The notes below the pieces were generated by a model. The model saw only the letters and a program-made list of their open reading frames with translations. It did not search any database and was not told the DNA's origin. A stretch of 64,000 nt of DNA from sequence record PQ306573.1. One strand, 5' to 3'. Source of the stretch: Escherichia phage vB_EcoM_PTE-Eco05. The position numbers were made by a program, and so were the translations under genes. Position 1 is the first letter of the stretch; the number at the start of each line of letters is the position of its first letter. Of this stretch, positions 2,783 to 34,166 are shown one piece after another.

Positions 2783-3556
2783 TTAAATCCAGGAGCCGTA
2801 GATTGTGCCTGTAGCACCCCATGACGGTGAACTTCCGAATACTGCTCTGCCAGGAGAACCACCGCCGGATCTAGATAAGTGTTTACCCCATCCATCTCCG
2901 CCCCGACCTCCAGCATCACCGCCATTGCCTCCGCCGTATTGGGAAGTGTAACCGGCACTGCCCGGGGCGTCATAACTAGCATTACCGCCAGGCCAATTAA
3001 CGCCACCGCCGCCGAGGCCAAATGGTCTGCCGCCACCGCCACCTGCTGTAGCATTTGGCGCCCAGCTATTCTGTAATGACACTGCACCACCACCACCACC
3101 ACCTGATGCAATAACGCCATAGTTCCAAATACGAAGTCTTCCGCCGATATCATTTTGGATTACATCGCCACCATTTGTGCCTGGGTTTCCGTTTACAGTA
3201 CCGTTACCACCTCGTCCCCACATATGAACTCCACCATGAATATTCAAAGTAACATATTCATTTGGCGTATCGCCATACATAAAGAATAATGGAACATCTT
3301 TACTATATGATACTAAATTTCCAGTGATATTAAACACTATAGGTGCACTACCTGCCTCAAAACATCTATCTCGGAACCATTGACCATTGAAGTTATGGTC
3401 TGCTCCAAGTGTGTGAATTACTTCAACAGATCGACCTATCATATTACTCATCCAAAACGGAATTCCCATTCTCAATCTCTGTGCGGCACCACCCATCCAA
3501 TTTTGTCCTGTATTAACTACTGCAGACGATCCTACCCACGGTCCTGTTACTGCCAT
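2783..3556 (-). CDS. 38: long tail fibre tip adhesin gp38 (T2-type, glycine-rich motifs)
   Basis: About 257 aa with repeated glycine-rich motifs ([40 protein letters not shown]); follows gene 37; ORF-track start 3568 is TTG, ATG at 3556 has a GGAGG RBS. Confidence 0.88.
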
Positions 3557-3568
3557 ATAAACCTCCAA

Positions 3569-3580
3569 GGGCCGAAGCCC
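3569..3580 (-). other. intercistronic RNA hairpin GGGC-UUCG-GCCC (minus-strand sense) between genes 37 and 38
   Basis: Plus-strand GGGCCGAAGCCC; 4-bp GC stem with UUCG tetraloop on the late transcript, immediately upstream of the gene 38 RBS. Confidence 0.5.
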
Positions 3581-3586
3581 CTCTTA

Positions 3587-6500
3587 TTATTTTAACAATG
3601 ATTTAACTAATGCTTTAAGTTCTTCAATTTCTGATTTAAGTTCCGCAATTTCTGTAGTATGTTCATTTATTGCAGCTGTATTTAAACCAATTACACCGTT
3701 ATAGTTCAAACGAAGTAAAGCTTCGCCATCGGGGTCACCTTCAACTAATTCTGGTAAAATAGCTTGAACTTCTTGGGCTATCAAACCGGCGTTAGGTTCC
3801 CATTTCTGATTGCCTTCTTCGTCCGTTCCACGTTTCTGCATATAAGTGTAACCGTTAATTTTAGAAAGCTTCTCAGAAGCATTTTCAAATTTAACAAGGT
3901 CTTTTTTAACACGAATATCAGAACGGACATAAACATCACGGACAAACGTTGAATAACTATCATTTGCCTGAACGAGATGCCCATGAGAAACGATAGCTCT
4001 TCCAACTTCTGTCCAAAAAGCACCGGTTGAATCCCAAAGCCCAGGATGAGATTGATAGCCTGCTCCCCAGTTTGCAATATGTATACCATTGGCAACCATA
4101 TTGATTCGGCCGTCACCACCATGAACTAATCCGGTGTCATTATCACCAATAACAACACATGCGCCTGTCCATGCAGGGTCACCTCCACCAGCTGATATTC
4201 TTACTCCAGCTTTAACCATGTCAGGAACGTACATGTTTCCATTATGGTGGAATTCGAAGATAGCTTGTGGGTCGGAACCGTTTTCCTGATTACCTACACG
4301 AATAATACCTTGTGCCCAGTTATTAGGAATGCGTCGCATACCAAAATCAACACCAGATACGTATCCATCATTCGTAATAACAGATTTTCCTTTGATAATT
4401 GGATAATAACTATCATTACCGACGTAGCCAAAATCCACAAATACGGGAGCTTCCTGGCGCCATTGATTTCCCCAATCGCCGGCCTGGTGTGCGGTCCAGA
4501 CCGACCCATTTATATAAATTCGGTCCCTATTAAAATTAAAAGTGGCAGTCCCTTCCGGGTTTAAAGCAATATCACCACCATTATTAACATATATGCCTGA
4601 TCTATTTTGGAAACTATAAAACGATATGGCATTATCAGCACCACCATTACCTACATACCAGTTATCAACGCCTGCTTTTTGTCCTTTCAAATAGCCAGAT
4701 TCGGTTGCCGTGCTATTAATAACGATGGCATCAGAGTTTGCATTAAGAGTTAAGCGACCTGTCATCGTGTCGCCTTCTTTAGAAACACGGGTAGCTATTG
4801 CATCGCGAATATTTGTAGTGTCTCCTGCTGAAGTAAACGATTTCCAAATATCCGAGAAAATATTACCATTACGAGCAATAGTAGCTTCACCGCCGCCGAC
4901 CTGAACGTTATCTGGGAAGTTAACAGTACCGTCTTGATTAAAACGAGACGTATGGCCTTGTGAACCATCTTCTTTCAGATGATGAATAACGAATGTACCC
5001 GAACTAATTTCAGTACCTAAAGACCAAACAGCTTTACCATTTAAAAACTTCTGTTTAACAATAGGATAATATTTGCTTACAGCATCATCATCAATTTCCT
5101 GGAAAATAGGAGCCGCTTGAGCATATTGAATATCATAACCACCAGCGCCTGCGCCATGACCAGTAAATTTAATATAGCCGTTTGCTGCGAACGTATTGTA
5201 ACTTGATTGTAAATCTGGAATAGTAACTTTACCAGTATCTAAAGCCATACTAAACGGGCGAAGTGGACCGATATCACCATTTTTGCCTTCACCATAAGCA
5301 GTCGGAATAATATGAAGACTACCTTCTGAACGTCTAAAAATGGCTCCATAATCTGCGTTCCAAATACGAAGCGCATTCACTGCTCCAGATGAAATTTCGC
5401 CTGTTGTGTGAACTCCTCTATTTCCAGCAGTAACACCAGATGATTCAAATGAACCGTTAACGTTCATTTCTACTTCACCTGTTGTAAGTCTTTGAATATA
5501 GCTCATCCAACTAGTTGCATCAGAAATTTCCATGACGTTTTTACGATTACCTACACTAGGATTAGTAAACGTATTGCCCCACACAGAAATTGTCATATTA
5601 TCAACTGAACTAGCTCCGGTCGTGTTACCTCTAAACATCAGTGTAGAAGCATTATTTCTACCATCGATATTAACAGAACCACCAATAACGTCAATATTAC
5701 CAGGAGTAACTAACAAACCGCCGTGAGTATTAATGTTTGTGGTACCCTTGCCGCGGAAATAATGATGATAGTTACCGCCTTGATAATATCCTAAAAGAGT
5801 CTGACCATCTCCAAACGCGTTATTATCGTGATATGTCACGACAGTAGCGAGAGCATAGTTTTCAGTTGGAGGAGTAGTTAAATCGGTTCCGTTAGTAGAA
5901 TATCCAGCTACAAATTTTCTTAGGCTAGTTGTTTCGCTGGGACTAAATAAAAATGTTTTCGTTCCATTATTAACGCTAAAATAATATCCATCTTGATGCC
6001 ATTTAAATCCAGTATCATTATCGCCAAGAGAAATTGAAGCAGTCCCTAATTCAGAGTATCCTTTATTGCCACCAGGAGTACCAACAGAAATAGAATGGCC
6101 TGCTTTCAATCCACCTGACCAGGTAAACGACCAAAGATAAGTGTCTAAGCCATCTCCAGTATACCAAGTTATTCCATCATTATCTTTAACTTCATGGAAT
6201 ACACCAGCGCCTACAGCATTGCGCATAACACGGAGATGATTAATAGCAGTAGTGCTTTCAGACAATGGAACGTTGTCTGCCATAGAATAAATGTCATAAT
6301 CGCTCGTAGATTTATTATTAGTAATAACTCTATTTGTCAAAATCTGAGGAGTTGACATAGATTTCCATGCTGATACTTCAGGTGAAGTAAATAGTCCACT
6401 GCCCGAAAATGCATAGGTGCTTTCATCACCAGCGGCGTAGTCTTTAACGCGGATATTAACTACTTGCGTAGTTAATCCATCATTAGCCGGTGCATAAATA

Positions 6501-15893: not shown

Positions 15894-15911
15894 GGGAGAC
15901 TTCGGTCTCCC
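15894..15911 (+). terminator. rho-independent terminator after gene 32 (GGGAGAC-UUCG-GUCUCCC plus U-run)
   Basis: 7-bp GC-rich stem, UUCG tetraloop, then TTTT. Confidence 0.7.
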
Positions 15912-15942
15912 TTTTGAGTATCTGTAAATTGCCGAAAAAGTT

Positions 15943-32823: not shown

Positions 32824-32947
32824 TATAAATAACTATATGAAGAGAACACTCTTCTAAGCGGTAGCCTACAACTGAGAGACTTGTCGAAAGAAGGTGAAAT
32901 TCAGACGAACGTGGCTACTAAATATTATCTCGAATTGAGAATTTAAA

Positions 32948-33196
32948 ATGATTAAACAATTACAACACGCTCTTGAACTGCAACGAAACGCATGGAATAA
33001 CGGTCACGAAAACTACGGCGCGTCAATTGATGTTGAAGCCGAAGCACTGGAAATCCTGCGTTATTTCAAACATCTGAACCCGGTACAGGCAGCTTTGGCC
33101 TCTGAACTGGAAGCAAAAGATGAACTGAAATATGCTAAGCCTTTGGCTTCTGCAGCTCGTAAAGCAGTACGTCATTTTGTTATTACCCTTAAATAA
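32948..33196 (+). CDS. rIII: lysis inhibition accessory protein RIII
   Basis: 82 aa, MIKQLQHALELQRNAWNNGHENYG...RKAVRHFVITLK, near-identical to T4 RIII. Confidence 0.95.
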   Translation: MIKQLQHALELQRNAWNNGHENYGASIDVEAEALEILRYFKHLNPVQAALASELEAKDELKYAKPLASAARKAVRHFVITLK

Positions 33197-33490
33197 GTTT
33201 TAGGTGATTCGCTACCTTAGTGCGGCTAGAAAATCGAGGAGCCGTCGAACTGTCTGATTAATGATTTGCGAATCATTATAGTTTTAAGACCCCGACAGTT
33301 TTACGGTGTACCTCTTGAATGTATTTTGTACTATCACGCGTCAGAAAAAGGTTATCTGTCTAAGTCGTGGTTGGTATGATGACGGGTTTATGGTTATCCT
33401 GTCGTTAAATATCCAAAACCTATGTTCCCCTTGAGGGCTTGCGCAGGCAATGTCAATAAGTCCTGCATTTTCATTTAAAGAGAATTTATA

Positions 33491-33670
33491 ATGGCAAAAC
33501 AAGCTAAAGCAAAGAAAGCAGTCGAAAAGAAAGTTGATGGTACCTCTAAACGCGCTGGATACAAGCGTGGGTCGAACTCTCGTATTAATCAAACAGTTGA
33601 GAAGATCATGCGCAGAGCACGTGCAGTTCTTCGAGATGATGCTTCTCGTTTTGGAAAGGTTGTTGCATAA
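33491..33670 (+). CDS. hypothetical small basic protein (59 aa), absent from the ORF track
   Basis: ATG at 33491 to TAA at 33668-33670; Lys/Arg-rich (MAKQAKAKKAVEKKVDGTSKRAGYKRGSNSR...); followed at once by a UUCG terminator hairpin. Confidence 0.45.
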   Translation: MAKQAKAKKAVEKKVDGTSKRAGYKRGSNSRINQTVEKIMRRARAVLRDDASRFGKVVA

Positions 33671-33675
33671 TTTTA

Positions 33676-33693
33676 GGGAGACTTCGGTCTCCC
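33676..33693 (+). terminator. rho-independent terminator (GGGAGAC-UUCG-GUCUCCC plus U-run)
   Basis: Same 18-nt hairpin as after gene 32, followed by TTTT. Confidence 0.7.
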
Positions 33694-33730
33694 TTTTGTG
33701 AGTTTAGGGCAGAAAAAGTTTAAAAAAGAT

Positions 33731-33759
33731 GTTTACTCTCCTGTAGGATGTGTTACTAT
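33731..33759 (+). promoter_or_regulatory. early-type promoter (GTTTAC ... TGTGTTACTAT)
   Basis: GTTTAC 33731-33736, 17-nt spacer, TACTAT 33754-33759; precedes the block of ORFs upstream of ligase. Confidence 0.55.
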
Positions 33760-33800
33760 AGACTTGTACCACCTAATCAATAAAACAACCGGAGAATAAA

Positions 33801-34166
33801 ATGAACTACATCAACTTCGAACGCAAATATGTTTCTAACGGTATCGCTGGTTCTATCGATATGGTTTGCTTGTGGAAGCATAAAAATGGTTCAGTATGTG
33901 AAATTGAGCAGTATATGACTCCTAATTACGTTTATATGCGCTTTGAAAATGGTATCACGGTTTCAATCACGATGGAAGGTTCCAACTTCAAAATTGCATT
34001 AGATGACGATTTCCGTCAACGTGATTTAGGTACTCATCCTTGCTGGAACGGTGTTAATCGTAAACTTCTGGTTAAAACTTGGATTCGTCATATCCTGAGT
34101 AACCGAGCTAAACCTGAACATCTCGAAGCAATCTTTGATGTAGTTCTTAACGAATTCGATATCTAA
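33801..34166 (+). CDS. hypothetical protein (121 aa)
   Basis: ORF track; RBS GGAGAATAAA. Confidence 0.55.
   Translation: MNYINFERKYVSNGIAGSIDMVCLWKHKNGSVCEIEQYMTPNYVYMRFENGITVSITMEGSNFKIALDDDFRQRDLGTHPCWNGVNRKLLVKTWIRHILSNRAKPEHLEAIFDVVLNEFDI

Follow-up and report, generated by a model that had tools for sequence, protein, structure and literature searches.

The gap between gene rIII and the following gene, 30.9, of Escherichia phage vB_EcoM_PTE-Eco05 (sequence record PQ306573.1, of which a 64,000-nucleotide stretch, termed the window, was analyzed) is probably transcribed as a noncoding, modular RNA that begins with a pseudo-ToxI decoy comparable to that of Pectobacterium phage phiTE. [quoted passage not shown] An original prediction had singled out the gap as an unusually long, apparently noncoding stretch that could hold a small RNA, a protein-binding site or the scar of a deleted gene. 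The gap is real: rIII ends at 33196 and the next ATG-initiated open reading frame (ORF) starts at 33491, which leaves 294 bp (33197-33490). As predicted, its + strand has no ORF of 60 amino acids (aa) or more, the only ones being of 37 aa (33266-33379) and 42 aa (33306-33434). The gap is not, however, peculiar to this phage: T4 carries one of 244 bp at the corresponding position.

Module A is related to the repeat unit of ToxI antitoxins

The element closest to rIII is the following.

33202..33235, + strand: module A, one ToxI-like unit (pseudo-ToxI), AGGTGATTCGCTACCTTAGTGCGGCTAGAAAATC; recognized by plasmid BLAST, a hidden Markov model (HMM) and pseudoknot pairs.

In BLAST searches, a 44-nt query around module A matches 58 plasmids, mostly at several tandem places per record. 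The matched places are 36-38-nt repeat arrays directly upstream of genes annotated as "type III toxin-antitoxin system ToxN/AbiQ family toxin". Plasmids with such arrays include pECA1039, which is the founding ToxIN plasmid, E. coli pTA141-2 and pU90-1, and plasmids of Hafnia, Enterobacter, Klebsiella and Pantoea. The ToxI unit is present in 5.6 copies both in pECA1039 (36-nt repeat) and in pTA141-2, in 4 copies in the IncX4 plasmid pU90-1, and in 7 copies in a Hafnia plasmid. Further ToxI sequence classes are represented in Enterobacter, Klebsiella, Pantoea and E. coli pB207_F.

When trained on natural ToxI units only, an HMM detects in the window a single site, located on the + strand at 33201-33236 (E = 1.1e-5), and thus one unit and no tandem array. 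In 20 related loci and in T4, this model detects the equivalent site. Module A of the window has 86-88% identity to units from Pectobacterium, E. coli pU90-1 and Hafnia, and the phage copies retain every column that does not vary between natural ToxI classes.

The ToxI pseudoknot comprises two interleaved helices, AGG/CCU and YGC/GCR, which were derived from the sequences in the light of the ToxIN crystal structure, and not from coordinates. Across 8 natural and 10 phage units, 93.5% of the cells in these helices are paired, and all six pairs form in the window copy (AGG/CCU and CGC/GCG). Of the six pairs, four change in a compensatory manner. The score for covariation reaches 0.394, compared with 0.165 for shuffles (0 of 500 reach the observed score) and at most 0.094 for slid controls.

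ToxN processes ToxI at A-rich sites of the AA^AU type. Module A is flanked by two sequences that resemble such sites, AAAU at 33191-33194, which overlaps the rIII stop codon, and GAAAAU at 33229-33234. The 3' flank matches that of natural units (GAAAAUC); the 5' AAAU lies 7 nt further from AGGUG than it does in natural arrays.

At the level of sequence, the BLAST, HMM and pseudoknot comparisons show module A to be a homologue of one ToxI repeat unit, the units upstream of toxN being 31-46 nt long. Searches of the window by tblastn with four ToxN variants gave only chance matches (E ≥ 0.2), and module A is therefore regarded as an orphan mimic and not as a toxin-antitoxin locus. It is best described as a putative phage-borne ToxI mimic that is phage-encoded, noncoding and without a toxin partner.

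The nearest natural ToxI class differs by phage lineage. Among the related loci (given L numbers here), L090 is closest to the Pectobacterium class, L092 and L091 to Enterobacter, and L100 to pB207_F. The T4 copy is more diverged, with an identity of 0.69-0.74 to several ToxI classes, and its assignment to the Pantoea or pB207_F class was abandoned as giving no clear preference. Module A is the only fast-evolving segment of the gap when the window is compared with T4, the remainder being nearly identical.

ToxI-like single units are also found, without annotation, in ~200 phage records from several unrelated families; phiTE is alone among the records listed in having its unit annotated. In the rows listed, these units are 89-99% identical to the Pectobacterium repeat. 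Carriers include Salmonella phage 7-11, Escherichia phage vB-EcoP-XT32, Vibrio phage JSF10, Klebsiella phage pzk-kv7 and many Klebsiella T4-like phages.

Module A begins a series of predicted RNA modules

Related loci were recovered via gp30.9 and rIII, and in the 27 loci with both genes located the distance from rIII to 30.9 ranges from 120 to 419 bp. The gap consists of a limited set of short conserved blocks that occur in varying combinations and orders among these relatives. In the window, module A is followed by modules X, Y, B, D1 and D2, in that order, and every block is single-copy within the 64 kb.

33236..33314, + strand: module X, a long bulged hairpin (GAGG.GCCGT.GAACTGTC ... GACAGTT..ACGG....CCTC); RNAalifold.
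33259..33278, + strand: 8-bp inverted repeat of the original prediction, the apical hairpin of module X; string search and covariation.
33324..33374 (start approximate), + strand: module Y, a cassette with the hairpin GTCAGA-AAAAGGTTA-TCTG inside an outer stem; a 51-nt insertion relative to T4.
33375..33424, + strand: module B, an H-type pseudoknot with stem 1 GACGGG/CCTGTC and stem 2 formed by the loop GGTT with a downstream AACC; covariation.
33425..33441, + strand: module D1, a small hairpin, GTTCCCC-TTGA-GGGCTTG; judged by eye.
33441..33467, + strand: module D2, a hairpin with the conserved 13-nt loop CAAUGYCAAUAAG, close upstream of the ribosome-binding site of 30.9.

The blocks behave as units when loci are compared. 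T4 lacks module Y, and loci L060, L069 and L071 carry a 135-nt block, termed C, exactly at the position of Y. Module A is precisely absent from RB69 and from L066-L069, and Klebsiella-type relatives have the order H-B-A-C-D1-D2. In the distant relatives L097 and L098, 30.9 follows rIII directly and has no leader. Comparative analysis of these loci shows that the gap comprises at least six discrete sense-strand modules (A, X, Y, B, D1 and D2), predicted to fold independently, that have been gained, lost, swapped and reordered among T4-like phages.

Within module B, 13 pairs evaluated over 20 variants are 84.3% paired, compared with 68% in shuffles. Its covariation score is 0.435, versus 0.168 for shuffles (0 of 500 reach 0.435) and 0.05-0.13 for slid controls. 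Four pairs in each helix are compensatory, and the linker, GUUAAAUAUCCAAA, is A-rich and conserved. Cognate loop and tail pairs are more complementary than non-cognate pairs, and only 2 of 2000 permutations reach the observed value.

Several possible identities for these RNAs were considered. The env25 pistol ribozyme has CGUUAAAUA and a loop-to-tail pseudoknot in common with module B, but this identity was dropped, as there is no covariance-model match to the pistol ribozyme even at E ≤ 10 on 121 nt. A weak match to a C/D-box small nucleolar RNA (UGAUGA) is attributed to chance (E = 0.92), and the T4 RNAs rnaC and rnaD are unrelated to the gap. At ~50 nt, module B resembles TenpI, whose mean repeat is 50.9 nt (PMC3401426), in size only. 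A tenpIN-type locus is absent from the first 50 kb of Yersinia plasmid p_153kb, and a BLAST search with module B against all plasmids, including p_153kb, found no match. When species-representative bacterial genomes were scanned for AGGTGATTCGCTACCTT, no arrays were found, and the 38 matches, all single and in unrelated taxa, are at chance level. A scan of viral contigs with the module B core pattern yielded 29 loci, many of which probably match by chance.

Module X is 100% identical between the window and T4. Its RNAalifold model has 25 consensus pairs, of which 5 are compensatory, and several invariant + strand pairs are G.U, corresponding to A.C on the other strand. The perfect inverted repeat noted in the original prediction, TAATGATT-TGCG-AATCATTA, lies exactly where it had been placed, and is more than a chance palindrome: it forms the apex of this 25-bp consensus hairpin, and it covaries itself, with TAATGATT/AATCATTA standing against TATCGATT/AATCGGTA. 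In the relative L074, two of its pairs, at columns 27-42 and 28-41, change on both sides in a compensatory way. Module Y has the stem variants TCAGA/TCTG and TCAGC/GCTG, a covariation judged by eye only.

Modules D1 and D2 always adjoin the 30.9 ribosome-binding site. D1 is present in most relatives with a variable loop, and its CCC/GGG stem is invariant and hence does not covary. In D2, 100% of the cells are paired in seven variants, but with one compensatory pair the covariation is weak; two versions of the stem, GCAGG/CCTGC and GAACTGG/CCAGTTC, share one loop. D2 is less certain in that RNAalifold favors an alternative helix, GGGCUUG/UAAGUCC. D1 and D2 are most likely leader elements that stabilize the transcript or control translation of 30.9, whereas modules X, B and Y are most likely further protein-binding or decoy RNAs.

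The earlier interpretation of the gap holds in part, its suggestion of an RNA being supported. At least three modules covary on the + strand, and the inverted repeat lies within one of them, which supports a structured RNA; a match to a catalogued family was not obtained. Covariance-model searches with Rfam 15 of the window region and 10 related loci gave only chance-level matches, far below gathering scores, and a scan for transfer RNAs and transfer-messenger RNAs found nothing.

Conservation of the gap

The aligned part of the gap is 96.2% identical to T4, compared with 85.9% for rIII and 91.5% for 30.9. Nearly all of the substitutions fall within the first 40 nt. Elsewhere the two sequences differ by a 51-nt block that is present in the window only and by three separate 1-nt insertions or deletions (indels). 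This degree of conservation is contrary to the proposal that the gap is the scar of a deleted gene or a poorly conserved spacer, and as judged from the alignments it appears to be neither.

Beyond module A (33236-33490, compared with 3542-3750 on the minus strand of the T4 locus L001), the noncoding gap of the window phage, a Mosigvirus, is almost identical to that of T4. The genes on either side of it differ by 8-14%. This near-identity could reflect either extreme constraint or a recent exchange of the cassette between genera.

Cassettes I, C and H

One further module of the window lies on the other side of rIII.

32860..32919, + strand: module I, in the 31-to-rIII intergenic region (5' untranslated region of rIII), GGTAGCC-TACAACTGAGAGACTTGTCGAAAGAAGGTGAAATTCAGACGAACGT-GGCTACT; single copy in the window.

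Module I has the outer stem GGTAGCC/GGCTACT and the conserved segments UACAAC, GUCGAAAGA and AAGAACGU, and a CYGA/TCRG helix covaries by eye. In other T4-like phages it is found in the rIII-to-30.9 gap, inside a hairpin GGGAGC/GCTCCC. One RNA cassette thus appears to serve the leaders of two genes, that of rIII here and that of 30.9 elsewhere, and in each of them a start codon follows it at a distance of ~30 nt. The positions of D1, D2 and module I fit leader or stability elements.

Block C is an RNA of ~135 nt (CGGCAAGUGCAUG ... GCUAACGGUGUGCAACAGAUAAGAG) in the rIII-to-30.9 gap of many T4-like phages. Its carriers, all outside the window, include L089 (1867-2001), L009, L060 (1886-2020), L069, L071, L087 and L096; in close relatives of the window it takes exactly the place of module Y. 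RNAalifold predicts 40 consensus pairs, 18 of them compensatory. Rfam contains no match to module C, and BLAST found none in plasmids or E. coli genomes. The module ranks as a strong candidate for a novel structured RNA. BLAST searches of plasmids with modules H, B, C, D and I of L089 gave chance-level matches only, and the part of L089 from C to D and I has no match in all complete E. coli genomes.

Cassette H, recognized by eye in the gaps of L079, L089, L096, L101 and L085, is a hairpin whose conserved loop is UGUACG, with GGUAAC after it. By eye, the stems show covariation (CCATG/CATGG, CTCTG/CAGAG and CTTTG/CAAAG).

Proposed function of module A and alternative interpretations

The gap is expected to be transcribed together with rIII and 30.9, because all three lie on the same strand with no terminator between them and a late-promoter-like sequence, TATAAATA, is located upstream of rIII; a consensus scan found no terminator inside the gap. 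In a cell with a matching toxIN locus, infection would free ToxN, which would then bind the phage RNA and probably trim it at the flanking AAAU and GAAAAU. The pseudoknot would subsequently hold ToxN inactive, and phage transcripts would be spared. We infer these steps (transcription, processing and ToxN inhibition) by analogy with the pseudo-ToxI of phiTE, which is expressed in infection and, once expanded, suppresses ToxN by RNA mimicry (PMC3475682). By the same analogy, module A is probably a decoy against the ToxIN suicide defense.

Several observations weigh against a decoy function. Module A is a single unit only; wild-type phiTE reportedly has 1.5 repeats. Natural ToxI arrays have 1.9-5.6 repeats (PMC3401426), and the escape mutants of phiTE carry expanded repeat arrays (PMC3475682). 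Compared with natural units and with the relative L070, the window copy lacks 1 nt in its loop (CTACCTT-AGTG). T4 is strongly restricted by plasmid-borne toxIN (PMC9391042) despite its diverged copy of module A. RB69 is restricted less by toxIN (PMC9391042) though it lacks module A, and pseudo-ToxI was accordingly discarded as the reason for its weaker restriction. Thus, module A does not explain the known differences between phages. Moreover, BLAST searches of 72,556 plasmids and 5,426 E. coli genomes gave no counterpart of modules X, Y, B and D, so that, unlike for module A, there is no evidence that they are mimics. Regarding T4 and RB69, the pairing of ToxI with ToxN is selective between classes, and the toxIN locus of those studies may therefore not be of a class matched by the phage copies.

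A tenable but rather unlikely alternative is that the gap is a structured 5' leader of the 30.9 messenger RNA (mRNA) combined with a 3' trailer of rIII, which together control mRNA stability and the translation of 30.9, and that the ToxI unit is a captured, inactive relic. The constant position of D1 and D2 next to the 30.9 ribosome-binding site and that of module I ~30 nt before a start codon in both of its contexts are as this interpretation would predict. The presence of only one ToxI unit, the continued ToxIN sensitivity of T4 (PMC9391042) and the ability of RB69 to dispense with module A are also in its favor. However, a relic would not retain both pseudoknot helices with compensatory changes across genera, nor would it track different natural ToxI classes in different phage lineages. 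Furthermore, expression of 30.9 needs none of these modules, because L097 and L098 have 30.9 directly after rIII.

The decoy interpretation can be extended to the entire gap, although we consider this extension speculative and, on present evidence, unlikely. The rIII-to-30.9 gap would then be an RNA counter-defense island, a hot spot of swappable decoy RNAs that each mimic the RNA partner of a different RNA-binding defense effector. If so, modules B, X, Y, H, I and C would be mimics or inhibitors of other systems, with pseudo-ToxI the only one whose target can be named.

It is improbable that the modules act as DNA, whether as recombination cassettes or hot spots, as a protein-binding site or as a replication origin; the promoter-stem-loop cassettes of T4-type phages would be the comparison at this level. 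Between relatives, modules change their order, replace one another and are excised exactly, which requires recombination at their borders, and the near-identity of the region beyond module A in two genera could reflect recent exchange. Nevertheless, many pairs are G.U or U.G on the + strand (A.C on the other strand), some of them invariant and some intermediates between Watson-Crick pairs, and covariation in a pseudoknot makes sense only for single-stranded RNA. Likewise, the natural-ToxI HMM matches the + strand only. There is also no promoter-like site in the gap: in agreement with the original prediction, which had seen no promoter consensus, a consensus scan detected no sigma-70-like promoter.

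Finally, the gap is most improbable as the decaying remnant of a lost gene or as coding sequence for micro-proteins, for although some automatic annotations call small ORFs in it, these match no PHROG family, they are interrupted in T4 by the 51-nt deletion and the three 1-nt indels while the nucleotides remain 96% identical, and the substitutions are compensatory for helices and not codon-like. The 37-aa and 42-aa ORFs on the + strand both cross the 51-bp stretch that T4 lacks. An 83-aa ORF with a TTG start on the - strand (33341-33592), antisense to 30.9, crosses the three indels. Because of these indels, a conserved reading frame in the gap appears to be ruled out on either strand.

Locus context and gene 30.9

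The window belongs to a T4-type Mosigvirus. The nearest GenBank records are 99% identical over 32948-33800, and the two relatives that were compared (98.7-99.1% identical) are both classified as Mosigvirus. The gene order is cd, 31.1, 31, rIII, gap, 59-aa ORF and 30.7, and the features flanking the gap are as follows.

32824..32831, + strand: TATAAATA, which matches the consensus of T4 late promoters, upstream of rIII; read from sequence.
32948..33196, + strand: rIII, lysis inhibition accessory protein, 82 aa; from the ORF list, and so named in relatives.
33478..33485, + strand: AAAGAGAA, a purine-rich Shine-Dalgarno-like stretch before the 30.9 start; read from sequence.
33491..33670, + strand: gp30.9 homologue, 59 aa, basic; match to phrog_1427, identity to T4 and synteny after rIII.
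33676..33697, + strand: intrinsic terminator, GGGAGAC-TTCG-GTCTCCC-TTTT; read from sequence, and annotated as a terminator in relative G53.
33731..33759, + strand: T4 early-promoter-like site, GTTTAC, 17-nt spacer and TACTAT, start of the next transcription unit; read from sequence.

The rIII protein shares 93% amino-acid identity with that of T4. Both promoter assignments presumably hold by the established T4 consensus sequences for late promoters (TATAAATA) and early promoters (33731-33759).

The 59-aa, Lys/Arg-rich ORF that had been reported beyond the gap, ending at a strong terminator, is present as described, and the 60-aa cut-off is the sole reason for its absence from the ORF track. 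It is not a new gene, as it corresponds to gp30.9, which is already annotated in T4 and RB69. Residues 1-56 are 96% identical to T4 gp30.9, the profile match is to PHROG 1427 (phrog_1427, function unknown; E = 2.4e-31), and the position after rIII is the same in T4 and RB69. There is no Pfam family for gp30.9. Its homologues form 65 protein clusters, in which the source names given are all T4-type phages except one entry labeled Shigella flexneri, and they share the invariant motifs SKRA.YKR.SN and RAR.V. An AlphaFold model has a disordered basic N-terminus and one long helix, at low confidence (mean predicted local distance difference test score 65). Nucleic-acid binding, which had been suggested for this ORF, is a guess. 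The proposal that gp30.9 is an analogue of TifA was rejected, there being no similarity to T4 gp61.4 (BLASTP E = 15).

UniRef contains a 97-aa [quoted passage not shown], which is an older, longer version of T4 30.9 reaching upstream into the gap. Its extension is not conserved among the aligned gp30.9 homologues, and the longer version is therefore probably an over-call.

The terminator downstream of 30.9 was overlooked by a simple scan, its T run being only 4 nt long. The same 22-nt sequence, GGGAGACTTCGGTCTCCCTTTT, occurs twice in identical form, at 15894-15915 and at 33676-33697. Downstream of 30.9, a 30.7 homologue occupies 33801-34166 of the window (Pfam Phage_T4_Gp30_7, E = 3.8e-52). 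Gene 30.8 is missing in the window, whereas T4, RB69 and the near-identical relatives G53 and JM17 have it.

Comparison with known systems

Studies of phage defense use T4 and its relatives as their main model, and these phages are routinely employed in tests of ToxIN. Should the unit be active, a second, RNA-based anti-ToxN device would be present in many T-even-type phages, and the sequence class of the unit would predict which toxIN variants a phage can overcome. Independently of this, the 244-bp intergenic region of T4, earlier treated as empty, is more conserved than its flanking genes, and several covarying RNA structures without an Rfam entry lie in it. These structures are concrete candidates for new phage regulatory or anti-defense RNAs.

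The published accounts that were compared (PMC9391042, PMC10853763, PMC5449768, PMC5086642, PMC3475682) attribute the interplay of T4 and ToxIN to the protein TifA and host shut-off, and they describe no ToxI-like RNA beside rIII, although a report elsewhere is possible. A literature search for T4 small RNAs or prior work on the gap returned only a 2003 reference on rIII and 30.9 expression (Driukas and Nivinskas, Biologija). The string of conserved RNA modules that surrounds module A is previously undescribed.

Among the anti-defense factors of the same phage group, T4 TifA (gp61.4), Dmd and AdfA of the "anti-TA island", where TA denotes toxin-antitoxin, act on the same class of target, and TifA inhibits ToxN (PMC9391042, PMC10853763). 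These factors are proteins encoded near gene 61, whereas module A is an RNA next to rIII. RNA anti-CRISPRs are solitary CRISPR-repeat mimics in phages, and they share with module A the logic of a single orphan defense-RNA repeat that serves as a decoy. They differ from it in the defense system and in the RNA. The leader of the T-even gene 32 mRNA contains an H-type pseudoknot upstream of the start codon, as does module B. However, the two differ in sequence and location, module B moves among phages as a cassette, and we know of no autoregulatory protein for it.

Module A shares with the ToxI of ToxIN plasmids a unit of 34-36 nt, the helices AGG/CCU and YGC/GCR, the invariant cores GCUAC and AGUG, and an A-rich 3' tail. 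In contrast to plasmid ToxI, the window copy is single, has a loop 1 nt shorter, lacks the layout of promoter, repeats, terminator and toxN, and has no toxN. With the pseudo-ToxI of phiTE (Blower et al. 2012, PMC3475682) it has in common that a ToxI-like noncoding sequence is encoded by a phage without a toxin gene. However, phiTE is an rV5-like myovirus, whereas the window phage belongs to the Tevenvirinae, with the unit always directly after rIII. Furthermore, whereas escape mutants of phiTE have expanded arrays, the window has exactly one unit, which is embedded among other conserved RNA modules. By sequence comparison, then, the closest known counterpart of this putative mimic is the pseudo-ToxI of phiTE, and its parent family is ToxI.

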